This document shows, piece by piece, positions 2,729-16,906 of a stretch of 32,000 bases of DNA (the stretch's first letter is position 1; each line of letters begins with the position of its first letter). Below the pieces are notes generated by a model. It was not told the DNA's origin and did not search any database. It saw only the letters and a list, made by a program, of their open reading frames with translations. Location of the stretch: NCBI GenBank assembly GCA_963704705.1, contig OY969931.1, positions 1,110,001 through 1,142,000 of the forward strand. Reading direction: 5' to 3'. A program made the position numbers and the translations under genes. This stretch comes from an uncultured bacterium (GTDB lineage: Bacteria > Patescibacteriota > Gracilibacteria > UBA1369 > PNNO01).

Positions 2729-3694
2729 ATGAGTGAACTCCTACAAACAATTTTACTATTCGCGGTAGCCCTATTCTTTCTGGTTAAATCAGCAGATTAT
2801 CTGGTGAAATATTCAGAAAAGTTAGGGTTATCGCTTGGAGTTCCTTCATTTATTGTCGGGATAACAATAATCAGTGCGGGTACTTCCCTGCCGGAACTTG
2901 CCACATCAATCTTCTCTATAGTTAAAGGAGAACCAGGTGTTGTTGCAGGTAACGTAATTGGTTCAAATATTGCCAATATTTTACTGGTTGTTGGTGTCGC
3001 TACAATAATTGCAAAAAAAATCGAAATCAAAAGAAGCCTAATCAGGCTTGATCTTCCGTTGCTGGTAGGGGCAAGCGCAATTTTGGTTTTGACTGTAATG
3101 GACGGCAAATTTACATTTATTGAAGGTGTAATTTCAATTTTAGGTTTCATAATCTACTTAATTTATAGTCTTACTGAACAGAAAAAACCTTTGGAGGAAA
3201 AAGAAAAAGGTTTAATAAAAACTTTGAAAGGTGAACAAAGGCCGCCCTTCAAATGGATTTATATTTTATGGATAGTAATTTCAGCTGCAGTACTTTATTT
3301 CTCTGCAAATTTCACTATTGATGCGGTTATAACAATGGGAGCAATTTTAAATTTAGATACATCTATCATCGCAATTACCGCTATAGCTATTGGTACTTCG
3401 CTTCCTGAACTTATTGTTTCTGTAACAGCAGCGAAAAAAGGTAAATTTGATATCGCTTTAGGTAATGTACTTGGTTCAAATATTTTTAACGGATTTATGA
3501 TAATGGGTGTTTCAGGTGTTATAACTGACCTGCCTGTTGAACCTGCGGTACTTAATATTGGTGTACCGTTTTTAATTGTTGCAACAATTTTTCTTGCTTT
3601 CTCAGGTATCGAACGAAAATTTTACAACTGGGAAGGCGCGCTTTACTTAATATTATATTTCCTATTTATAGGACAACTCTTTAACTTTATATAA
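2729..3694 (+). CDS. Ca2+/Na+ (CaCA family, YrbG-like) antiporter
   Basis: Polytopic membrane protein with duplicated alpha-repeat signatures [10 protein letters not shown] / [10 protein letters not shown] and GNVIGSNI / GNVLGSNI. Its stop lies 1 nt before the rpoC ATG. Confidence 0.88.
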
Positions 3695-3695
3695 A

Positions 3696-6600
3696 ATGGC
3701 AAATCAACAAGAACGGCCTCATGAAGGTCACCAAAGACAAAATCAAAACCCTCATACTTTAGATACATTTGATGCAATTTCAATTGCAGTTGCTTCTCCT
3801 GAGGAGATATTATCTTGGTCTCACGGCGAAGTTAAAAAGCCTGAAACAATTAATTACAGAACTCAAAAACCTGAACGTGAAGGTTTATTCTGTGAAAAGA
3901 TTTTCGGGCCAACCAAAAACTGGGAATGTTATTGCGGAAAATATAAAAGAATCCGATATAAAGGTGTAATTTGTGAAAAGTGTGGAGTTGAAGTTACTAG
4001 AAGCTCAGTTAGACGTGAAAGAATGGGTCATATTAAACTTGCGGTTCCTGTTACTCACATTTGGTTTTTAAGATCTACACCAAGCAGAATCGGTTTACTT
4101 TTGGATTTACCAATTAAAACTATTGAACAGGTAGTTTATTTTGCTGCATACGTAATTACTCAGGTTGATGAAGATGCAAAAACTGAAGCAAAAGAAACAC
4201 TTACAAATGAATATCAACAGCATAAGAAGAAAATTAAAGAAGAAGCAAAAAATGCTGTAGATAAAGCTAAATCAGATGAAAAGAAAAAGGGAGAACTTTC
4301 AATGATTGAAAGAGATTACGCTAAAAAAATTGAAGAATTGGATGAACAGCATGCAAGTGCAAAAGATGATTTAAACGGACTTGCAGTTGGCTCGGTATAT
4401 TCTGAGCTTGAATATAGAAATCTTTCAATGAAATTCGGACAAATCTTTAAAGCAAGTACAGGAGCTGAATCAATCCGGGATATCATTATGAGTCTTGATC
4501 TAAAATCATTGATTGATGAACTTGAAGTTGACCTTAAAAAAGCTTCAGGTCAAAAGCAAAAGAAAATTATTAAAAGAATTAAACTTTGCGGAAGTTTATT
4601 AAAAGCCGGAATCAAACCTGAATGGATGGTACTTACAGCATTGCCTGTAATTCCACCGGATTTAAGGCCAATGGTGCAACTTGACGGAGGAAGATTCGCT
4701 GCTTCTGATCTTAATGATTTATACAGACGTGTAATTAACAGAAATAACCGTTTAAAAAGACTTATTGCAATTGGAGCACCGGAAGTAATCTGCAGAAATG
4801 AAAAACGTATGCTTCAGGAAGCTGTTGATACTTTATTAAACAACAGCGCTCGTCAGGGTAAAACAGTATTTAACTCTGGAGATAAGAGAAAACTTCGATC
4901 TCTTTCTGACATGTTGAAAGGTAAACAGGGTCGTTTCAGACAAAACTTACTTGGTAAACGTGTGGATTATTCAGGACGTTCTGTAATTGTGGTTGGACCG
5001 CACCTTAAATTAAATCAATGTGGTTTACCAAAACTTATGGCAATGGAATTATTTAAGCCGTTTGTTATCGGACGTTTGATTAGAGACGGATATGCTCACA
5101 ACATTAAAAATGCAGAAAAATTAATTCAGGCTAATAAAAGAGAAGTTTGGGATATTCTTGAGGAAGTTACAATTGGTCACTATGTATTATTAAATCGTGC
5201 TCCAACGCTTCACAGATTGGGAATTCAGGCTTTCCAGCCTGTACTGGTAGAAGGTAAAGCGATTCAGATTCATCCATTGGTATGTACGGCGTTCAATGCG
5301 GACTTTGATGGAGATCAGATGGCGGTTCATGTGCCTTTATCAAAACAGGCTCAGGAAGAAGCTAAGAGACTTATTCAGTCAGCTAACAATTTACTTAAAC
5401 CATCTCATGGTGAACCTATCGTAACACCTACTCAGGATATGGTGCTTGGATGTTACTTCTTAACAAAAATGACACCTGGTAAAAAGGGAGAAGGTATGGT
5501 TTTCTCTGACTTGGACGAAGCAATTTTAGCTTATAGACTTGGATATGTTCATGTGCAGGCTGCAATCAAAGCAAGAGTTAATGATGAAATAATCGAAACA
5601 ACTGTTGGAAGAATGATCTTTAACAGCTTTGTACCTGAAGGACTTCCTTACGTTAACGAAACAATGAAAAAAGGAAGCTTAAGTTCACTTATCAGTGACT
5701 CTTACAATAAATACGGTAACGAAGTTACTGCAAAATTCGCTGATGAAATTAAAAGACTCGGATTTAAATTTGCTACAAAATCAGGGCTTTCAATCGGAGG
5801 TGCTGATATGCTTGTGCCTTCAGAAAAGACTAAAATCATTGAAGATTCTTCTGAAGTAATTAAACAGATTACAAATCAATTCAATGAAGGATTAATGACA
5901 GATGAAGAAAGATATAATCATTCGATTAAAGTATGGTCTCAGGCTAAATCTGACATTACAACAGCAATGATTAAAAACATTGATGATGAAAATCACATTT
6001 ATTACATGATTGATTCAGGAGCCAGAGGTAACTGGGGTCAGATCACACAGCTATGCGGAATTAAAGGTCTGGTTGCTAATCCTGCAGGTAAAACAATCGA
6101 ATTACCAATCAAATCAAACTTAAAAGAAGGATTCACCATCCTGGAATACTTCATTGCAACACATGGAGGCCGTAAAGGTAAATCTGATACAGCGCTTAAA
6201 ACAGCTGAAGCAGGTTACTTAACACGTCGTCTTGTTGATGCGGTTCAGGATATCATTGTTAAAGAATATGACTGCGGAACTGAACACGCTCATAGAATCA
6301 CACGTAATGAAAGTGAACAGATCGGTGAAGATTTTGAAAAGAGAATTTACGGACGTGTTGTTACAAAGAATGTTATAGATTCAAAAACAGGTGAAGTACT
6401 TGTTAAAAAAGATACTGAACTTGGCAAAGCGGAAATCAAGAAAATCACCGAAGGAACAGTTGATGAAGTATATGCAAGATCAGTAATGACGTGCCAGACT
6501 CCAAATGGAATCTGCGTAAAATGTTATGGTAAAGATCTCGGAACAAATGACACTGTTGATATTGGTACTGCTGTTGGAATTATCGCAGCACAAAGTATCG

Positions 6601-7761: not shown

Positions 7762-8172
7762 ATGCCAACAATTAATCAATTAGTTAGAAAAGGAAGAAAA
7801 AAAGTCATTAAAAAGACTAAATCGCCAGCAATGGGGATAACATTCAATACATTGAAAAATAATAATGTTTCAATTAATTGTCCTCAAAAGCGTGGTGTAT
7901 GCGTAAAAGTGTTTACAATGACACCTAAAAAACCGAATTCGGCATTACGTAAAGTGGCAAGAGTAAGACTAACTAACGGAATGGAAGTTAATGCTTATAT
8001 TCCTGGTGAAGGACACAATTTACAGGAACACTCTGTTGTTACTATCAGAGGAGGAAGAGTAAAGGATCTGCCTGGTGTACGTTATCATATTATCAGAGGA
8101 TCACTTGATACTCAGGGAGTTGAAAAACGCAAGCAGGGCAGAAGCCGCTACGGAACTAAAAAACCTAAATAA
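7762..8172 (+). CDS. rpsL: 30S ribosomal protein S12
   Basis: [43 protein letters not shown]. Confidence 0.98.
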
Positions 8173-8193: not shown

Positions 8194-8646
8194 ATGCAAA
8201 AAAGAGCACATTTTATACCAAAAGATTCAAACCCGCTTTATGAAAAATTCATAAACTATGTAATGAACGACGGTAAAAAAACCGTTGCCCGCAGAATCTT
8301 TAATGATTCATTCAAAATGATAAGCGAAAAAACTAAAGAAGATCCGGGTAAAATCTTTAATAAAGCATTGGATAACGTAAAACCTCAAATGGAAGTTAAG
8401 CCAAAGAGAATCGGAGGCGCTGTTTATCAAATTCCATTGGAAGTTAATGCAAACAGACAAATTACCTTAGCATTCAGATGGCTTATTACAGCTGCAAGAT
8501 CAGGAAAAGGTTCAGCAATGCACCAAAGGCTTGCTAATGAACTTATGCAGGCAGCAGAAGGCCAGGGTGCAGCATGCAAGAAGAAGGAAGATACTCACAA
8601 AATGGCTGCTGCAAACAAAGCGTTTGCTCACTTTGCAAGATACTAA
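8194..8646 (+). CDS. rpsG: 30S ribosomal protein S7
   Basis: S7 pattern (FINYVMNDGKKTVARRIF, VKPRRIGGAVYQIP-like KPKRIGGAVYQIPLEV, AFAHFARY end) and position after rpsL. Confidence 0.95.
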   Translation: MQKRAHFIPKDSNPLYEKFINYVMNDGKKTVARRIFNDSFKMISEKTKEDPGKIFNKALDNVKPQMEVKPKRIGGAVYQIPLEVNANRQITLAFRWLITAARSGKGSAMHQRLANELMQAAEGQGAACKKKEDTHKMAAANKAFAHFARY

Positions 8647-8704: not shown

Positions 8705-11218
8705 CTAGTAATAAATAAAGTCATAGTATTCGCCTTCATCAGGTCCAACTTCAACTGAATTCACTTCTGCATAATCATTATTCATATCATTGGCTTTTAC
8801 CATACCTTTTGAAACAGTGTATAAATAGTTTCCTATATAAAGAACTCTTTCAATATCTTTTGGACCATACCAGTAATAACCCGCTTTATCCGCTACTTCA
8901 GTTTCAGTGTAATGTGAAATCTTTGCTTTAAGATTAAATCCCTTTTGAAGATCAAGCCCGAATACATAAGCGCCCTGGAATATATAATCGCCATATGTAT
9001 TTAAAGGCATATTAGGATCTTTAACTTCATCAGGCAGCTGAGCAACTTTTACAGGGAAAGCAATTATATTTTTATCCTTATCAAATAATAATGCTTTATG
9101 ATCATATAAAAGCGGAGAATCAGTTCCCCTGTCGCCTATCACAACTTTAAATTGCTCAATTGGATTATTAACATCGGTTACATCAAACAATCCAACTTTC
9201 ATTCCCTGATACCATTCAAAATCAACTGTCCTTCCGGCTGCCTCAAGTTCAGTCGGGTCCACTGTATCTTTTCCAAATCCAAGTACATGGTTTTCGTCAT
9301 AAGGATGCAAATAATCGCTGTAGCCCGGTATCTTAAGCTTACCTAAAACTTTAGGAAAAGCATGATTGCTCATATCTATCACAAAAAATGGATCAATCTT
9401 TTTAAAGGTAACCATATAAAGTCTTCCGCCAATAAATCTCGTAGAATAAATGCTTTCACCCGGAGCAAGACCTTCAAGTTTACCAACCATATTCATATCT
9501 GAATCATAAACATAAACATCATTGTCAGAGCTTCCGTCCCAACTGAATCCACGGGTTGTTGCAATTCTAAAATGGTCATCATATTCATCCATAGAGAATT
9601 GATTTAAAATATGACCCGGTGCTTTTCCTTTTGACTGAAATTCAATTCCATCTTTTCCAAGGCTGAATTTATATAAATTTGTATTTTCATTATCACTTCT
9701 CCAATACCAATTTGATGATGCAACGTATAAATTATCACGAGATGAATATATATTTTCACTTCTGCCAAGTATAACTTCGTGTACTATATCCGCACTTTTA
9801 TCATTGATTGGAATTCCAACTACAATTAAATAATTAGGATCTTCCATAATCGGAATTTGTTTGATATCAGTACAATCAACAAGCGGTTTAGATACTTCAT
9901 CATCATTGTCCAAATACTGCGGAAGAATTTCTACAGGATTTTCAATATCAGCATAAGGAATAAACGCGTATCTGTTTAATACAACATAAACCATATCATC
10001 AACTTTTCTTGACTGGCTATAATCACCCTCAAATGTCATTTTTCTAAATTGTTTGATATCGGTTTTATCTGAAATATCAAATATATAAACCACTGTTTCG
10101 CCTCCTCCGTAATAAGGATGAGCTATTTCCACTGACATTGGCTCGCCTCTTAAAGGATACGGATATGAATAATATGAATTTCCAATTACAACCAATTTAT
10201 CGCCGTCAACATACATGTCGGTAGGCAAGAAGCTTTCGTCTTCGAACGCCAAAGCATCGAGCTCCTGCATTTCATCAGGCTGATAAGCTTTAACAACTCT
10301 TATTTTGCTGTCTTTAATAATATAAATATATTCACCGTCTGTTTTCACAAAATCCGCTTCATCAACACCTTCAACCTGTACGTTTGTAGTTGAATATTCC
10401 GCTAAATTTGTACTTTCATCTGCACGTGAAGCATCTGTAGAGCTTACAGTTGTTTTTGTGGCACCAGCATTTGGTTCAGACACAGGTAAAGCCATTTCTC
10501 CTACCGCCATATCCCCTTCAACTCCATAATAATAAGTATCAAGTGTTTGGAATTTATCTATCAGCATCTGGCATGATTCAATGTTTGTAACCTGTTGATT
10601 TTTTGTTGTTTCTTTCAAGGTATTATAATTGTTCGAATCCCCTGTTTCACCGGTTTCAACACGCCAAACCATCTCAGCCATTTCTCCTCGATTCAAATAC
10701 TGATCAAATGTTTCAACTGAAGGCGGAATCGCATTATCCGCTTCAACTGCTTTTACATATTTGTGATACCAGGCATCCTGATAAGTATCATCAGCCGGAA
10801 TATCAAGTCCTTCAGTAATAACTTTTCCTGATTCAACAAAATTAATAGGGCGTTCAGGTTTAAAAGTTCCATCCGGATATCCCTGAACCAAACCTTCAGC
10901 CTTTGCCTTACATACATAAGGAGCAAACCACTGATCTGTTACATCAGGAAAACAATAGCCACCTTCAGGTGCAATGTCTGCTGATTCAAGAACAATTTTC
11001 ACAAACTCAGCACGGTTGATTGTATTTGCCGGTTTGTAAGATCCATCAGGATAACCCTGAACAACTCCTTCATCAAGAAGGAATGTTACTGCATCAGAGT
11101 ATTCGTAAGTAGTAGGTACATCTGCGAAGCTTGCTGCACTTGCTGTATTTGAGACTACAATAAAAGTAGCCATAATACCCAGCATTGCAAACACTGCTCC
11201 CAGTTTTTTTGCATTCAT
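8705..11218 (-). CDS. secreted surface protein: signal peptide, three SLH-like repeats and a large beta-propeller domain
   Basis: N-terminus MNAKKLGAVFAMLGIMATFIVVSNTASA. SLH-like repeats FADVP...GVVQGYPDGSYKP..INRAEF and FPDV...GLVQGYPDGTFKP. The rest resembles the secreted 'beta propeller domain' family (STTNVQVEGVDEADFVKTDGEYIYI, FDxSD, HPYDENHxxGFG motifs). Confidence 0.85.
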   Translation of the reverse strand: MNAKKLGAVFAMLGIMATFIVVSNTASAASFADVPTTYEYSDAVTFLLDEGVVQGYPDGSYKPANTINRAEFVKIVLESADIAPEGGYCFPDVTDQWFAPYVCKAKAEGLVQGYPDGTFKPERPINFVESGKVITEGLDIPADDTYQDAWYHKYVKAVEADNAIPPSVETFDQYLNRGEMAEMVWRVETGETGDSNNYNTLKETTKNQQVTNIESCQMLIDKFQTLDTYYYGVEGDMAVGEMALPVSEPNAGATKTTVSSTDASRADESTNLAEYSTTNVQVEGVDEADFVKTDGEYIYIIKDSKIRVVKAYQPDEMQELDALAFEDESFLPTDMYVDGDKLVVIGNSYYSYPYPLRGEPMSVEIAHPYYGGGETVVYIFDISDKTDIKQFRKMTFEGDYSQSRKVDDMVYVVLNRYAFIPYADIENPVEILPQYLDNDDEVSKPLVDCTDIKQIPIMEDPNYLIVVGIPINDKSADIVHEVILGRSENIYSSRDNLYVASSNWYWRSDNENTNLYKFSLGKDGIEFQSKGKAPGHILNQFSMDEYDDHFRIATTRGFSWDGSSDNDVYVYDSDMNMVGKLEGLAPGESIYSTRFIGGRLYMVTFKKIDPFFVIDMSNHAFPKVLGKLKIPGYSDYLHPYDENHVLGFGKDTVDPTELEAAGRTVDFEWYQGMKVGLFDVTDVNNPIEQFKVVIGDRGTDSPLLYDHKALLFDKDKNIIAFPVKVAQLPDEVKDPNMPLNTYGDYIFQGAYVFGLDLQKGFNLKAKISHYTETEVADKAGYYWYGPKDIERVLYIGNYLYTVSKGMVKANDMNNDYAEVNSVEVGPDEGEYYDFIYY

Positions 11219-11300
11219 TATATAGAGGGTTAAATAGCAAAATCGCTAAATATAAGTATACAACGTTAGCCAAAATTACGAAAGCGAGTTGACGAATAAT

Positions 11301-11335
11301 AAAAAGCCCGCCCCACTACGATGAGTGGGGCGGGC
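11301..11335 (-). terminator. intrinsic terminator of small ORF A
   Basis: On the minus strand: gcccgccccact-catcgt-agtggggcgggc, then ttttt. 12-bp GC-rich stem (11306-11317 / 11324-11335). Confidence 0.8.
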
Positions 11336-11354
11336 GCGAAGTTCGATGAGGCGA

Positions 11355-11498
11355 TTAGGTGCCGAGTCGTCCTGTCCACGCGAGTACGTGGAAGACGACA
11401 AAAGGCGGGCAGAGCACAGTGAAGATGGCGGTAACCACGATCATGGTGTTGAAGTGACGCTTTGCGCTTCTCTTCAGCTCTTTGTTCTCGTTCATCAT
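11355..11498 (-). CDS. small hydrophobic peptide A (47 aa): MMNENKELKRSAKRHFNTMIVVTAIFTVLCPPFVVFHVLAWTGRLGT
   Basis: Absent from the ORF track, which lists nothing shorter than 60 aa. AAGGAGA Shine-Dalgarno 5 nt upstream of the first ATG (plus-strand tctcctt 11504-11510). Basic N-terminus plus one ~24-aa TM segment. About half G+C by hand count. Terminator follows directly. Confidence 0.55.
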   Translation of the reverse strand: MMNENKELKRSAKRHFNTMIVVTAIFTVLCPPFVVFHVLAWTGRLGT

Positions 11499-11819
11499 AC
11501 TTTCTCCTTTCCTTGTAATGGGTTGGTGCCTCAAAGAACATAAAGCTTCTTGCTGTACTTAAAATCAAGTCAGTAAAAAGACAGGCTAATAAAGTACCAC
11601 AATTAAATACGAAATCAATGTTACATCGTGACTGCCTGCATTTTATACATTCTAAACTTTTTGTCGATTGTTGTTTCGGATTGATGCTTGAGCTCGTCGT
11701 GTTTTTAAATATCGCCCATGGTTTTTTGTGATGAATTTCTTAAGCCGGCTTATTGCATGTGCCTTTGCCCATTTTTTGTTTGATGATTTTAAGTTTTAGA
11801 ATAATTTTTGGATTACAAG

Positions 11820-11854
11820 AAAAAACCTACCGCGCAACATGTGTACGCGGCAGG
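11820..11854 (-). terminator. intrinsic terminator of small ORF B
   Basis: On the minus strand: cctgccgcg-tacacatgttg-cgcggtagg, then tttttt. 9-bp stem with one G-U pair. Confidence 0.7.
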
Positions 11855-11874
11855 CATGAAGCGGCCGGTCAGGA

Positions 11875-11994
11875 TCAGTTGCATCCGGGAAGAGGGACAC
11901 CTATGAAGTGCAGCAACAGTGGCAGAACCCAGAGTATTACTACTACCCCAAGGGCTATCGAAACCCAGAATTTAACTTTCTTGTCTTTTGCCAT
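11875..11994 (-). CDS. small hydrophobic peptide B (39 aa): MAKDKKVKFWVSIALGVVVILWVLPLLLHFIGVPLPGCN
   Basis: Lies in frame inside track ORF 11875..12105. AGGAGA (plus-strand tctcct 12001-12006) sits 6 nt before this ATG; an alternative ATG at 12000 abuts the SD. Lys-rich N-terminus plus one TM segment, GC-rich codons, own terminator. Confidence 0.55.
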   Translation of the reverse strand: MAKDKKVKFWVSIALGVVVILWVLPLLLHFIGVPLPGCN

Positions 11995-12085
11995 TGGCAT
12001 TCTCCTTTCAGATTTCGGCCTGTATAATTTCGAATTGCGCTTCGCAACAACTGGAACGAGCACAATCCAAGCAAATTGTAATTGA

Positions 12086-12113
12086 ACCTTATCACTTTTG
12101 CTCAATTTGTCAA
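12086..12113 (-). promoter_or_regulatory. candidate promoter for small ORF B, back-to-back with the fusA promoter
   Basis: Minus strand: TTGACA (12113-12108), 16 nt, TAAGGT (12091-12086). Confidence 0.35.
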
Positions 12114-12130
12114 CTTAAAGCACTTTGCGT

Positions 12131-12158
12131 TTGACTTTTACCGCATACTCCCTATAAT
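12131..12158 (+). promoter_or_regulatory. candidate promoter for fusA
   Basis: TTGACT (12131-12136), 16 nt, TATAAT (12153-12158), about 55 nt upstream of the fusA ATG. Confidence 0.55.
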
Positions 12159-12211: not shown

Positions 12212-14287
12212 ATGTCTGAAGATCTGCGAAAACTGCGAAATATTGGTATTATTGCCCATATTGATGCTGGAAAAACAACTTTTACAGAACGTATATTATT
12301 CTATACCGGTAAAAAACATAAAATCGGTGAAACGCACGATGGTGCAGCTGATATGGACTGGATGGAACAGGAAAAAGAGCGTGGAATTACTATTACTTCG
12401 GCAGCTACTACCTGTTATTGGAAAGACATAAGAATTAATATTATTGATACTCCGGGTCACGTTGACTTTACTGCTGAAGTAGAACGTTCGCTACGTGTTT
12501 TGGATGGCGGTGTTGTTGTGTTTGACGGATCTCAGGGTGTTGAACCTCAATCTGAAACAGTATGGAGACAGGCTGATAAATATCATGTACCAAGAATGGC
12601 TTTCATCAACAAGATGGATAAAATGGGTGCTGATTTTTACATGTCTATTAATTCTATCGAACAAAGATTAAGTGATAAAGCAGTTGCAATTCAGCTTCCA
12701 ATCGGTGCTGAAAGTACTTTCGAAGGAGTTGTAGATCTATTGGAAGAAAAAGCATATAAATTTGAAGGAGAATTCGGGCAAAACATTGTTGCTGTTGATA
12801 TTCCTGAAGATATGAAAGAAAAAGTTGAAGAATACAGACATGTAATGATTGAAAAGGTAGCGGAATGCGATGACAATTTAATGGAAAAATATCTTGAAGG
12901 GCAAGATTTTACAATTGATGAAATTAAAGCAGCTATAAGAAAAGGAACCATCGCAAACCAAATTTATCCTGTTTTATGCGGAACAGCGCTTCAGAATATT
13001 GGTGTACAGCTAATGCTTGATGCTGTTAATTGGTACCTTCCTTCACCTCTTGATATTCCACCAATAAAAGGTATTAATCCAAGAACAGAACAGGAAGAAG
13101 AAAGACCAGCTGATGAAACCAAACCTTTCTCTGCACTTGCATTTAAAATCGCAACAGACCCTTTTGTAGGTAAACTATGTTTCTTTAGGGTTTATTCAGG
13201 AAGACTTGATGCAGGCTCTTATGTTTATAATGCAACAACAGGCCAAAAAGAAAGAATCGGTCGTATTTTACAGATGCATGCGAACTCACGTGAAGAAATC
13301 AAAGAAGTGAAAGCAGGTGATATCGCGGCTACGGTAGGTCTTAAAAACACAATGACAGGAAATACACTATGTGATGAAGGTCATCCGATTGTTTTGGAAT
13401 CAATTGACTTCCCTGAGCCTGTTATTTCGATCGCAATCGAACCTAAAACCAAATCAGATCAAGAGAAGCTTGGACTTTCTCTTCAAAAACTTGCTGAGGA
13501 AGATCCTACTTTCCAGACTTACACTGATGAAGAAACCGGTCAGACTATTATTTCAGGAATGGGTGAGCTTCACCTTGAAGTATTGGTTGATCGTTTAAGA
13601 AGAGAATTTAAAGTTGAAGCGAATGTAGGTAAACCTCAGGTTGCATACCGTGAAACAATTCAATCTGAAGTTGAAATGGAAGAAAAATATTCAAAACAAA
13701 CCGGTGGTCGTGGTCAATACGGACACGTACTTATCAGAGTCATGCCACAAGAACCAGGTAAGGGTTATGAATTCGCTGATAAAATCACTGGTGGTAAAAT
13801 CCCTAAAGAATATATTCAGCCTGTAAATAAGGGTATTCAGGAAGCAATGACAAGAGGTGTTATTGCGGGCTACCCAATGGTTGACCTTAAAGTTGAACTT
13901 TACGATGGTTCATACCACGATGTGGATTCATCTGAAATGGCGTTTAAAATAGCGGGTTCTATCGCCTTCCAAAACGCTGCCAAAAAAGCAAATCCAGTTC
14001 TTCTTGAACCAATAATGAAAGTTGAAGTGGTAACTCCTGAAGAATATTTTGGAGATGTAATGGGTAACTTAAGCTCAAGAAGAGGACAAATTAGTGAATC
14101 AGGCGACAGAGGACCAGTTAAATTTATCAAGGCCGAAGTGCCTTTAAGTGAAATGTTCGGTTATACAACTGACTTAAGATCAATGACTCAAGGTAGAGCA
14201 ACTTCAACAATGGAATTTGGACATTATTCAAAAGTTCCTAAGAATGTTGAAGAAAAGGTAGTTGCTGAACGAACAGGAAAAAAATAA
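12212..14287 (+). CDS. fusA: translation elongation factor G
   Basis: [21 protein letters not shown] GTPase motifs; 691 aa with full EF-G architecture. Confidence 0.98.
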
Positions 14288-14289
14288 TT

Positions 14290-14460
14290 ATGGATAAAAA
14301 GTACGACCCACTAGCTCCACATATACCAGAAGACATGACTCCAGAAGAAGCTGAAGCTGAAAATCAGCGATTGTTACGACAGCAGATGGAAGACGACATG
14401 TTTCAGGAGGCTCATGGGATAAAAAGACGTACTGCAAAAATTACTAGGCTTGATGATTAA
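14290..14460 (+). CDS. hypothetical acidic 56-aa protein, starts 2 nt after the fusA stop
   Basis: Absent from the ORF track. ATG 14290, TAA 14458-14460: MDKKYDPLAPHIPEDMTPEEAEAENQRLLRQQMEDDMFQEAHGIKRRTAKITRLDD. Overlaps the next ORF start by 8 nt. Confidence 0.4.
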   Translation: MDKKYDPLAPHIPEDMTPEEAEAENQRLLRQQMEDDMFQEAHGIKRRTAKITRLDD

Positions 14461-14704
14461 AATTAACGAGCTTACAAAGCGAATTAAAAATTCGCAATAT
14501 CTTTATGACAATGAAAAAGCTGAACTGCTTGCGGATTTGCCAAACCTAACAGATAATGAATTAAATACTCTGAATGACATTTTTATTGATGTGGATAATG
14601 AATATGAAGTCTTAACCGAGGCAAGTTATTTTGCTGTGTCCGGCTTAATGCAAGCATTCATCACAATGAATGATTTTGAAATTAAAAATCAAAAAAATGC
14701 CTGA
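14453..14704 (+). CDS. hypothetical acidic 83-aa protein
   Basis: The track ORF starts at TTG 14450; ATG at 14453 preferred. Overlapping start/stop with both neighbours suggests coupling. No family recognised. Confidence 0.5.
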   Translation: MIKINELTKRIKNSQYLYDNEKAELLADLPNLTDNELNTLNDIFIDVDNEYEVLTEASYFAVSGLMQAFITMNDFEIKNQKNA

Positions 14705-15458
14705 AAGATATAAAGGCCCCGAAAAAAAAGAAGTTAATAGACAAAAACTAATGCCTTCCCGCAGAGAGATTGGACGTGTTTTAAAATCCGGTCCTGCAAA
14801 CAAATTGCGACAACAAACTAATTTATTGAAATTAAAAGGTATCAATCAACTTAAAAACACCCCTGGACCAAAAGAACAAGTTACAACAATTGTAAAACTT
14901 GCTGAAAATTTAAAAAACAGAGTTGCCAAACAGGTTAGAGGCAAATTAAATGGAGAACTTAATAAAAAACAATCAGATTTATTAAATATGCGCTTTAGAT
15001 TACCTAATCAACAATCCTCAAGAGAAAGCCAAAAAGGCAAAGTTGTTTTGAAATTAAAAGGTTTAGGTGTAGGCGTGAAATATAGCAAAGGCGGTTCCAA
15101 TATTGAAGTTGCCATAAAAAAAGGCCCTGATAAAAGAACTCCTGTTGATGCAAAAGTTAAAGCCAATATTCGTATTCCTGGCCAGGAAAACACAACACTC
15201 CATTTAAGATATGATCATAAACTTAAAAGGTTTTCTGTTAGCGGAGATTATACACTTGCTAATGCAGGTAAATTATTAGGTAAAAAAGCTCAGCTTAATG
15301 TTAATGCAAATGTTGCGGTTTCTCCAAAAGAATCAAATTATTCAACTTCGGTCACTTATGGGAACGACAAATTGAAATTAGAAGCTCGCACAGATCTGAC
15401 TTATCAAAGAGGCAGGGTCTCATATCAAGTCGTGGGTGGGGTCAGCGCCAGATTTTAA
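14697..15458 (+). CDS. hypothetical protein: very basic N-terminal half, beta-strand-patterned C-terminal half ending ...YQVVGGVSARF
   Basis: ATG 14697 overlaps the upstream TGA (ATGCCTGA); an alternative ATG lies at 14670. No signal peptide or recognisable domain. Confidence 0.6.
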   Translation: MPERYKGPEKKEVNRQKLMPSRREIGRVLKSGPANKLRQQTNLLKLKGINQLKNTPGPKEQVTTIVKLAENLKNRVAKQVRGKLNGELNKKQSDLLNMRFRLPNQQSSRESQKGKVVLKLKGLGVGVKYSKGGSNIEVAIKKGPDKRTPVDAKVKANIRIPGQENTTLHLRYDHKLKRFSVSGDYTLANAGKLLGKKAQLNVNANVAVSPKESNYSTSVTYGNDKLKLEARTDLTYQRGRVSYQVVGGVSARF

Positions 15459-16749: not shown

Positions 16750-16805
16750 AGAGCGACCAAAGGGAGCTCTTTGGAGCGAGCCGCGTTAAGGCGGCGAGCG
16801 AAGCT
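16750..16805 (+). repeat. R4: GC-rich repeat copy starting right after the tuf stop
   Basis: agagcgaccaaagggagctctttggagcgagccgcgttaaggcggcgagcgaagc. AGAGC (16750-16754) pairs with GCTCT (16766-16770). Second small stem gccgc/gcggc. Confidence 0.65.
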
Positions 16806-16825
16806 AAAAAATATAAGTCCTAGTC

Positions 16826-16853
16826 GCCCCTGCCGAAAGGTGGGGGCTTTTTT
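16826..16853 (+). terminator. intrinsic terminator after tuf
   Basis: gcccctgcc-gaaa-ggtgggggc, then tttttt. GAAA tetraloop, two G-U pairs. Confidence 0.7.
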
Positions 16854-16901
16854 AGACCAGGTCTGGCGGGTAGACCAGGTCTGGCCGCCAGACCTGGTCT
16901 A
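16853..16901. promoter_or_regulatory. array of three 15-bp TAGACCAGGTCTGGC units (two direct, one inverted), each holding the palindrome AGACC-W-GGTCT
   Basis: Units at 16853-16867, 16871-16885 and inverted at 16887-16901. Units 2 and 3 form a perfect 31-bp palindrome. Core centres are 18 bp apart. The array ends 5 bp before the -35 of the next promoter. Confidence 0.6.
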
Positions 16902-16906
16902 AATCA

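Follow-up and report, generated by a model that had tools for sequence, protein, structure and literature searches.

We looked at a 32,000-nucleotide stretch (the window: contig OY969931.1, positions 1,110,001 to 1,142,000) covering the ribosomal-protein and translation-factor region of a Peregrinibacteria/Peribacteria-like bacterium of the Candidate Phyla Radiation (CPR). Between the promoter of a gene for an SLH/beta-propeller protein and that of fusA, it holds an insertion island of about 0.8 kb (11297..12104, minus strand) with two mini-genes for small membrane peptides, here called open reading frame (ORF) A and ORF B, and, between them, the remnant of an HNH-like nuclease gene. At a probability of roughly 0.4, we favour the reading that the two units are type I toxin-like, selfish membrane-peptide modules on a decaying HNH mobile island. 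Our confidence goes no further because the partner that defines such systems, the antitoxin RNA, is missing and the peptides have no similarity to a known family. According to this reading, the island would be what remains of a mobile HNH-nuclease cassette carrying two autonomous mini-genes, each of them a complete expression unit made of a sigma-70-like extended -10 promoter, a hairpin leader, a Shine-Dalgarno (SD) sequence, the ORF, a helix closing around it, and a terminator. The peptides would be membrane-active and toxin-like, mRNA folding would keep their translation in check, as for toxins of the hok/aapA type, and the units would have persisted as selfish or addiction-type modules after the death of the mobile element that brought them. 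Both can be described as foreign-looking small membrane-peptide genes under strong RNA-structure constraint, for which the toxin label is a hypothesis. An earlier reading of the letters without database searches (the sequence-only reading) had pointed to the two mini-genes and had missed the HNH pseudogene between them; the insertion island and this pseudogene, previously unnoticed, are what is new here.

Each mini-gene was present as first written, and both translations proved exact. ORF A (11355..11498, minus strand) encodes the 47-aa single-pass membrane peptide MMNENKELKRSAKRHFNTMIVVTAIFTVLCPPFVVFHVLAWTGRLGT, and ORF B (11875..11994, minus strand) encodes the 39-aa single-pass membrane peptide MAKDKKVKFWVSIALGVVVILWVLPLLLHFIGVPLPGCN, an orphan. 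An AAGGAG SD sequence stands 5 nt before the ATG of ORF A (11504..11509, minus strand) and 7 nt before that of ORF B (12002..12007, minus strand). Downstream, the hairpin of an intrinsic terminator begins 19 nt past the stop codon in both units. That of ORF A (11301..11335, minus strand) has a 12-bp GC-rich stem, GCCCGCCCCACT/AGTGGGGCGGGC, followed by a T-run, and is conserved in the two relatives that carry an ORF A copy, L081 and L002; that of ORF B (11819..11855, minus strand) also consists of a 12-bp GC-rich stem and a T-run. Stem and T-run together were placed at 11335..11306 for ORF A and at 11855..11825 for ORF B. The basic N-terminus and single transmembrane (TM) helix described for both peptides held as well, with a net charge of +3 in each N-terminal head and a maximum 19-residue Kyte-Doolittle hydropathy of 2.27 for ORF A and 2.72 for ORF B. 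Being shorter than 60 aa and having a predicted TM helix, both peptides fall within the size and hydrophobicity range of type I toxins. A putative ORF A promoter was read from the sequence at 11591..11618 (minus strand) as TTGATT, 16 nt, and TGg-TACTTT, an extended -10, with its -35 box coming after the stop codon of the HNH remnant. At the aligned position L002 has TTGACT...TGt-TACTCT, so that the conserved form is TTGAYT, 16 nt, TGn-TACTYT. The putative ORF B promoter (TTGACA, 16 nt, TGa-TAAGGT; 12086..12113, minus strand) lies back-to-back with the fusA promoter at 12131-12158. The TTGACA box that had been singled out is a perfect -35 (12113..12108), while the -10 that follows the TG, TAAGGT, is weak (3/6). 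Neither of these two putative promoters is in the list returned by the consensus promoter scan.

The composition of the two ORFs differs from that of the host genes. ORF A has a GC content of 0.53 and a GC content at third codon positions (GC3) of 0.73, and ORF B has 0.47 and 0.50, respectively; the window as a whole has a GC content of 0.365, and the GC3 of 34 host genes ranges from 0.15 to 0.36. Among the codons for V, L, A, F, I, T, G, and P, the fraction ending in G or C is 0.71 in ORF A and 0.41 in ORF B, compared with 0.25 in the membrane protein gene at 2729-3694 and 0.21 over 15 host genes. This bears out the aberrant, GC-rich codon usage first suspected from a hand count. The statement that no other gene in the window has an SD also stood, as a match of at least 5 nt was found for 0 of the 34 host genes, whose upstream regions are A/T-rich. 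These SD-less genes (34 long ORFs, e.g., those at 12212, 15556, and 22289) include the highly expressed ribosomal-protein, fusA, and tuf genes. Since their start codons are preceded by A/T-rich tracts with no SD, this suggests SD-independent initiation in the host lineage.

We then weighed whether the two mini-genes could be chance ORFs in the junk DNA of a decayed insertion, with no expression. ORF B being an orphan speaks for this, as does the AAGGAG hexamer, which is not rare in the window (18 copies vs. 15 expected, the remaining copies lying within coding sequence by our reading of the match positions). However, two units of the same eight-part design stand within 0.8 kb, about 1 Mb of related DNA is essentially devoid of this design, and the ORF A unit is conserved while the adjoining HNH remnant is at 74% identity with deletions. 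Chance ORFs are therefore scarcely credible. The window and about 1 Mb of related loci were searched by a strict scan for an SD, a 25-70-aa TM ORF, and a terminator. It gave nine matches, four of which represent the two mini-genes and the L081/L082 copy of ORF A; the other five were judged unrelated or due to chance. Units of such design are thus essentially confined to the island locus in this related DNA, and the observation of two of them together is far beyond chance. As a separate observation, the Peribacteria metagenome-assembled genome (MAG) L063 (GC content 0.52) has, downstream of its fusA gene (3573-3689), a 38-aa TM mini-ORF, MADAQKFPVVLLFLAVVVFALTTIVFVGLTTWFPPTWE, that comes with an SD-like site (GGGAG) and a terminator. 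Its sequence is unrelated to both ORF A and ORF B.

Comparison of the ORF A copies shows that ORF A codes for a protein and is under purifying selection; its mRNA structure also appears to be under selection. When ORF A was used as a single sequence and as a three-sequence profile against 5.8 billion proteins, the only match was P0001, its sole database homolog (87% identity), encoded on the metagenome contig L081. A hidden Markov model (HMM) search of 1.84 billion representatives returned P0001 and one spurious match to a 2305-aa protein. The copy in L002 is 32% identical, in the same frame and with its stop at the same column. Its peptide, MKKKTFANLGIAVTGVATLVCFPVAPLLGLAILARMSL, aligns with ORF A without gaps in the TM helix and shares N, I, V, T, T, C, P, L, A, and R positions with it; N, T, T, C, and P are the conserved TM-helix positions of the family. 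Over shuffles, this alignment has a z-score of 4.3 for the peptides and 13 for the nucleotides. Between ORF A and L081, we obtained a nonsynonymous rate (dN) of 0.072 and a synonymous rate (dS) of 0.337, that is, an omega of 0.21, with a synonymous excess at P about 0.01. The differences fall 5/3/9 on codon positions 1/2/3 and include a CGT-to-AGG double change that keeps Arg and a TAA-to-TGA change of the stop codon, which is TAA, TGA, and TAA at the same column in the three copies. In the ORF A frame, the differences amount to 6 amino-acid changes, compared with 10-12 in each of the other five frames. Moreover, a 5-nt indel in the L081 leader breaks a TTG-initiated, 59-aa upstream extension, which is why we place the start of ORF A at the ATG at 11498. 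The sequence-only reading, which had dismissed the longer overlapping ORFs as shadows and had staked its claim on the conservation of the reading frame, was right on both counts for ORF A.

The translation signals are kept along with the frame. A purine tract is present at the SD position in L081 (AAGGAGAAAGU) and in L002 (GGGAAAGGA), and L002 keeps the start codon, this tract, and the TM hydropathy despite a nucleotide divergence of about 50% in the ORF body. Identity to L081 is 95% in the leader, 89% in the ORF body, and 93% from the stop codon to the start of the SLH gene. For comparison, the neutral-looking spacer between rpsG and the SLH gene is 62% identical, and the neighbouring genes have a dS of 0.40-0.77. 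GC3 is 0.73-0.83 across the three ORF A lineages, and that of the adjacent HNH gene is 0.37. That GC3 has been kept at a dS of 0.34 points to selection on synonymous sites, and not to a recent transfer that has still to drift to host composition.

Folding of the predicted transcripts gave z-scores of -4.8 for ORF A, -5.1 for its L002 homolog, and -3.1 for ORF B. The folds of the window, L081, and L002 share one plan: a 5' hairpin, a closing helix around the SD and the ORF, and the terminator. In ORF A, the mRNA's 5'-terminal hairpin (11545..11582, minus strand) has three compensatory pairs in L002 in its helix 1. The 5' arm of the closing helix, GUUCUUUGAGGC (11528..11539, minus strand), is located in the leader, within TGTTCTTTGAGG, a block that does not vary among the window, L081, and L002. 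The 3' arm, GCCUCAUCGAAC (11341..11352, minus strand), begins 3 nt after the stop codon and pairs with 11528-11539. Thus, GUUCUUUGAGG(C) in the leader is joined with (G)CCUCAUCGAAC past the stop, enclosing the SD and the entire ORF. This helix is present in both the minimum free energy (MFE) and centroid folds and, independently, in the L002 fold; 9 of its 10 pairs are invariant across the three sequences, and its arms are among the few blocks identical in all of them. ORF B folds to an analogous plan, with a leader (12016..12070, minus strand; fold z-score -3.07) made of a 5' hairpin (12030-12070) and the 5' arm of a closing helix (GGCCG, 12016-12020). This arm pairs with CGGCC just past the stop codon (11863..11867, minus strand) in the MFE and centroid folds, a helix seen in a single sequence. 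The leader is about 85 nt long in each unit. In the three-sequence alignment, 92% of cells pair, and there are 15 compensatory pairs vs. 2-5 in slid controls and 6.1 ± 2.0 in shuffles, statistics drawn from three sequences, two of them close, with the structure derived from the same alignment. The z-scores, the recurring architecture, and the maintained GC3 lend good support to the strong RNA-structure constraints that had been offered as one source of the unusual composition.

With such folds, the units might primarily be structured non-coding RNAs, either small RNAs or RNA remnants of a mobile element, in which the ORFs are incidental or secondary. The flanks of ORF A are more conserved than its body, some of the compensatory pairs lie within the ORF, a high GC content is what structured RNA typically shows in an AT-rich genome, and an open frame of about 40 codons is not very improbable at 55% GC. 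However, the window has no Rfam 15 match at the gathering score, and the best relaxed match, anti-hemB, reaches 19.3 bits vs. a gathering score of 49.5 and is driven by the terminator, so that no known RNA family takes the place of the two genes, an explanation that the first reading had left room for. Furthermore, the ORF A frame has the low omega, the third-position excess, and the fewest amino-acid changes, and the stop column, start, purine tract, and TM hydropathy are all kept in L002. We consider a primarily non-coding role quite improbable overall. The codon-level evidence against it concerns ORF A; ORF B, which has no comparative support, may be non-coding. Indeed, because ORF B has no homolog, its coding status depends on its design. 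Exact-sequence look-ups of ORF A, ORF B, and a 76-aa extension of ORF B gave no record, and this extension was also included as a query in the homolog searches for ORF B. A relationship of ORF B to ORF A as a diverged paralog was tried and rejected (alignment z-scores of 2.0 for nucleotides and -0.8 for peptides); the two are analogous and cannot be aligned.

The island itself was defined by comparison with relatives in which it is missing. In L001 (fusA 92% identical) and L004 (fusA 85% identical), the SLH and fusA promoter regions are conserved and nearly adjacent, and blastn with the island matched these two relatives in the flanks only. In the window, the island is bracketed by an inverted pair at 11287-11297 and 12105-12115, with the half-sites AGTTGACGAAT and ATTTGTCAACT. 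The corresponding half-sites GTTGAC/GTCAA are about 6 nt apart in L001, where the empty-site sequence is GGTTGACGGTTTAGTCAAATTGG, and about 45 nt apart in L004. The half-sites of the L001 empty site (5890-5912) form a tight palindrome, GTTGACGGTTTAGTCAA, which may represent two divergent -35 boxes that overlap, an operator, or the target of the nuclease. The same site is therefore polymorphic for presence and absence: it is occupied in the window, in L081, and in L002, the latter two having the ORF A unit with the HNH gene or its remnant, and it is empty in L001 and L004. The foreign origin proposed from composition is in this way supported by an insertion absent from relatives. As for its position, placed by the sequence-only reading between rpsG and fusA, the island does adjoin fusA, but it does not directly follow rpsG, as the SLH/beta-propeller gene intervenes. 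We also observed that the similarity rankings around the island are incongruent. For fusA, the window is closer to L001 (92%) than to L002 (88%), whereas for the adjacent SLH protein it is closer to L002 (76%) than to L001 (69%). This could be due to unequal rates, or to recombination or co-conversion in the vicinity of the island.

Between the two units, at 11627..11814 (minus strand), lies what is left of an HNH-like nuclease gene: its C-terminal third, which has frame breaks and an internal deletion. A tblastn search with the intact 272-aa protein of L081 detected it (E 2e-13) as two segments, covering aa 152-235 and 247-271; compared with the L081 gene, it has a 31-nt deletion and an identity of 74%. 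The ORF B unit occupies the place of the 5' two-thirds of the nuclease gene. In L081, the intact HNH-like ORF (78-896) is located upstream of the small ORF, and the downstream order, SLH gene, rpsG, rpsL, rpoC, is the same as in the window. The L081 protein has a CxxxxC...HH...CxxHH motif and weak PHROG HNH matches (E 2e-4 to 6e-4), with nothing above threshold in Pfam. Its HNH core matches two viral contigs (48% over 38 aa), and tblastn of the protein against phage records found nothing, nor was anything meaningful found among PDB sequences. L002 has a differently deleted HNH remnant (about 5600-5900) together with the homologous small-ORF unit. In the distant Gracilibacteria MAG L023, a full-length, 28%-identical nuclease homolog is located divergently upstream of fusA (4426-5274), with no small ORF beside or downstream of it. 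Hence, the idea that the small ORF is a regular partner of the HNH gene was dropped. Members of the HNH-like family, of about 272-282 aa, thus lie divergently upstream of fusA in distant lineages of the CPR; L081 and L023 have an intact gene, the window and L002 a pseudogene. Judging from these positions, the family may be a homing cassette targeting the region upstream of fusA. Taken together, the empty sites in L001 and L004, the intact gene in L081, the remnants in the window and L002, and the L023 homolog look like the trace of a free-standing HNH cassette, once inserted into the spacer upstream of fusA and now in decay. The nuclease gene has decayed independently in two lineages, with the ORF A unit intact alongside. 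A selfish or addictive module fits this pattern, since the unit is intact in three lineages and the nuclease gene has decayed in two of them.

The window, L081, and L002 share the order promoter, leader, short ORF, terminator, and SLH gene, all on one strand, and the region from the terminator to the SLH start is 93% conserved. ORF A could then be a leader peptide or attenuator governing terminator read-through into the SLH/beta-propeller gene. However, this gene keeps its own promoter-like motifs, YGTAAT and TATACTTATA, downstream of the terminator, and L001 and L004 carry it with the same promoter-proximal motifs and without the unit, which disfavours attenuation. In addition, the folds contain no alternative antiterminator, a 47-aa TM peptide is atypical as a leader peptide, and ORF B, of the same design, is followed by a pseudogene only. 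An attenuator is therefore very improbable.

To return to the toxin-like reading, several results weigh against it, besides the narrow alignment behind the pair counts. The long-distance helix itself does not include the SD, and the masking of the SD is inconsistent between copies: both the SD and the AUG are predicted to be mostly open in ORF A of the window, L081 has a paired AUG, and L002 has a partly paired SD. Pfam, NCBIfam, PADLOC, and PHROGs contained no toxin-family match above noise (Hok/Gef, Ldr, Fst, TisB, Ibs, ShoB, TxpA/BsrG, and others). All three known members of the ORF A family come from one locus in one narrow clade, and ORF B, with no homolog found, could be non-coding. A scan for sigma-70-like antisense promoters, in which non-canonical promoters are outside the scope, gave none in the three ORF A units, and apart from the fusA promoter there is no plus-strand sigma-70-like promoter in the island. 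On these grounds a cis-antisense antitoxin was rejected, and the check for antisense RNAs that accompanied the first proposal came out negative as far as such promoters go. Complementarity in trans is limited to inverted matches of 11-12 nt, at chance level. The 12-nt matches between the units (I7, I8, I9), considered as trans pairing, were likewise set aside as chance-level, I9 showing by our reading no covariation in L081, and no divergent small RNA with at least 18 nt of complementarity was detectable in the island. The resemblance to type I toxins that had been proposed is thus upheld for the small TM peptides and the hok/aapA-like mRNA layout; no antisense promoter, family match, or consistent masking of the SD was found. 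The sensitive peptide and HMM searches that had been called for yielded one ORF A homolog, P0001, and for ORF B none, with no known family for either. A peptide-pattern scan of metagenomes found nothing, nor did searches of viral contigs with ORF A and ORF B or searches of phage and plasmid DNA; one metagenome match of the DNA motif (L083) is due to chance, being inside a TPR gene of a GC-rich contig.

The main rival to the toxin-like reading is that the units are ordinary, non-toxic small membrane proteins, for example, subunits or regulators of envelope complexes, located in a recombination-prone spacer, with the mRNA structure serving stability only. The single-TM, basic-head layout is common among bacterial small proteins and counts for it, as do the purifying selection on ORF A, the conserved polar positions in its TM helix, the failure to find an antitoxin, and the fact that in three lineages the SLH/beta-propeller gene directly follows the unit on the same strand. 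However, L001 and L004 have the SLH gene and no unit, the family is limited to one narrow clade, and a decaying nuclease as neighbour, a strong SD in an SD-less genome, and an off-host GC3 would be odd for a housekeeping accessory. We regard this explanation as somewhat doubtful, although it is the one that competes most seriously. Members of the AcrZ, KdpF, CydX, and MgtS class resemble the two peptides in size, in having a single TM helix, and in having been missed by annotation. Such proteins usually share an operon or a functional link with a partner complex, and their codon usage is like that of the host. The island units, in contrast, are autonomous and foreign in composition, and close relatives do without them.

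The likeness to known type I systems is closest for hok/Sok and aapA/IsoA. In hok and aapA, long-distance 5'-3' pairing keeps the toxin mRNA inert (PMC6733600). The island units likewise have a small (<60 aa), one-TM peptide with a short transcription unit to itself, a highly structured mRNA that includes a 5' hairpin, a 5'-3' helix closing the ORF, and a strong terminator (PMC6733600), and an association with mobile DNA. They differ in that no antisense RNA gene was found and that the long-distance helix excludes the SD; compared with hok/Sok, they also have no overlapping mok-like frame and no Pfam similarity to Hok or others. In tisB/IstR-1, zorO/OrzO, shoB/OhsC, and dinQ/AgrB, an mRNA controlled by its 5' untranslated region has a long leader and encodes a TM peptide of about 30-50 aa, and the antitoxin is divergent or acts in trans. 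The leaders and TM peptides of the island are alike, and by analogy translation would likely be limited by leader structure; the island differs in having no detectable divergent small RNA of this kind, and no LexA-type or other regulatory site was identified in it. As for the nuclease, free-standing HNH homing-endonuclease genes are known between conserved genes, e.g., T4 mobE (PMC2790892). Common features are an HNH-like ORF in a spacer of the conserved rpsG...fusA cluster, presence or absence at the same site, rapid decay after fixation, and the full-length L023 homolog divergently upstream of fusA. In contrast to the phage case, the cassette belongs to a cellular CPR genome, has small membrane-peptide genes of different base composition beside it, and is weakly assigned as HNH (PHROG E 2e-4 and the Cys/His motif). 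In homing, the nuclease would cut the empty allele and repair would copy the cassette into it; the incongruent SLH and fusA rankings and the L023 homolog on the same side of fusA are indirect hints of this.

The surroundings of the island are those of an interrupted str operon. The gene order is rpoC, rpsL (7762-8172), rpsG (8194-8646), the SLH/beta-propeller gene, the island, and fusA (12212-14287, identified by TIGR00484), which has its own near-consensus promoter on the plus strand (12131-12158, 11/12). The SLH plus beta-propeller protein (837 aa; 8705-11218, minus strand; Pfam E 1.6e-164 and 2.6e-23) is an envelope gene product whose gene, in the opposite orientation, sits between rpsG and fusA and splits the classical operon. 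The closest fusA relatives are Patescibacteria single-amplified genomes and Peribacteria MAGs, at 85-92% identity. Over 7.2 kb spanning the entire region, the independent Logan assembly ERR11571143 matches the window at 100% identity, so the sequence is not an assembly artefact. The scan for tRNA and tmRNA genes found none. An intron or intein in the fusA gene of relatives had been hinted at by match spans of more than 2076 nt and was rejected, as fusA in L001, the one relative checked, is an uninterrupted 690-aa ORF; the extra span is assumed to come from the neighbouring EF-Tu GTPase domain. The fusA-tuf interval (14290-15458) is another interruption of the operon, with three unannotated ORFs of 56, 84, and 262 aa that have no Pfam family above threshold and are called as genes in the Logan contig L084. 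After tuf, a GC-rich intergenic block (16750-16903) contains a terminator-like hairpin at about 16822-16850 and, at 16851-16903, a near-perfect palindrome with 26-nt arms and three copies of AGACCAGGTCTGG (0.24 expected by chance). A spacer 3' of a 657-aa gene (2075-2140; GC content about 0.5, repeated GAGCGA/GAGCAA-type motifs) resembles the start of this block (16750-16800), and the two may be copies of a dispersed intergenic repeat.

CPR/Patescibacteria genomes are tiny and poorly annotated, and neither a type I system nor an RNA-controlled toxin is described for them in the literature that we searched. In its boldest form, our reading would make the island units the first type I toxin-like modules in the CPR: a new peptide family in which a strong SD, in a genome whose other genes start translation without it, and a closed-loop fold act as the on/off switch of a membrane toxin, and which rides on and has outlived an HNH homing cassette targeting the rpsG-fusA spacer of CPR genomes. 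As a whole, we hold this fuller version to be rather unlikely. Should the peptides prove to be harmless small membrane proteins, what is left is a modest correction of the annotation. The locus also offers a simple comparative signature that could help to find unannotated small genes elsewhere: GC3 greatly exceeds that of the genome, the ORF body is less conserved than its flanks, and a nuclease gene next to the mini-gene decays while the mini-gene is kept. If the peptides are toxins, post-segregational or selfish membrane toxins would reach even minimal episymbionts, and a unit of about 290 nt would provide a compact test case of SD function in a lineage whose own genes are SD-less.

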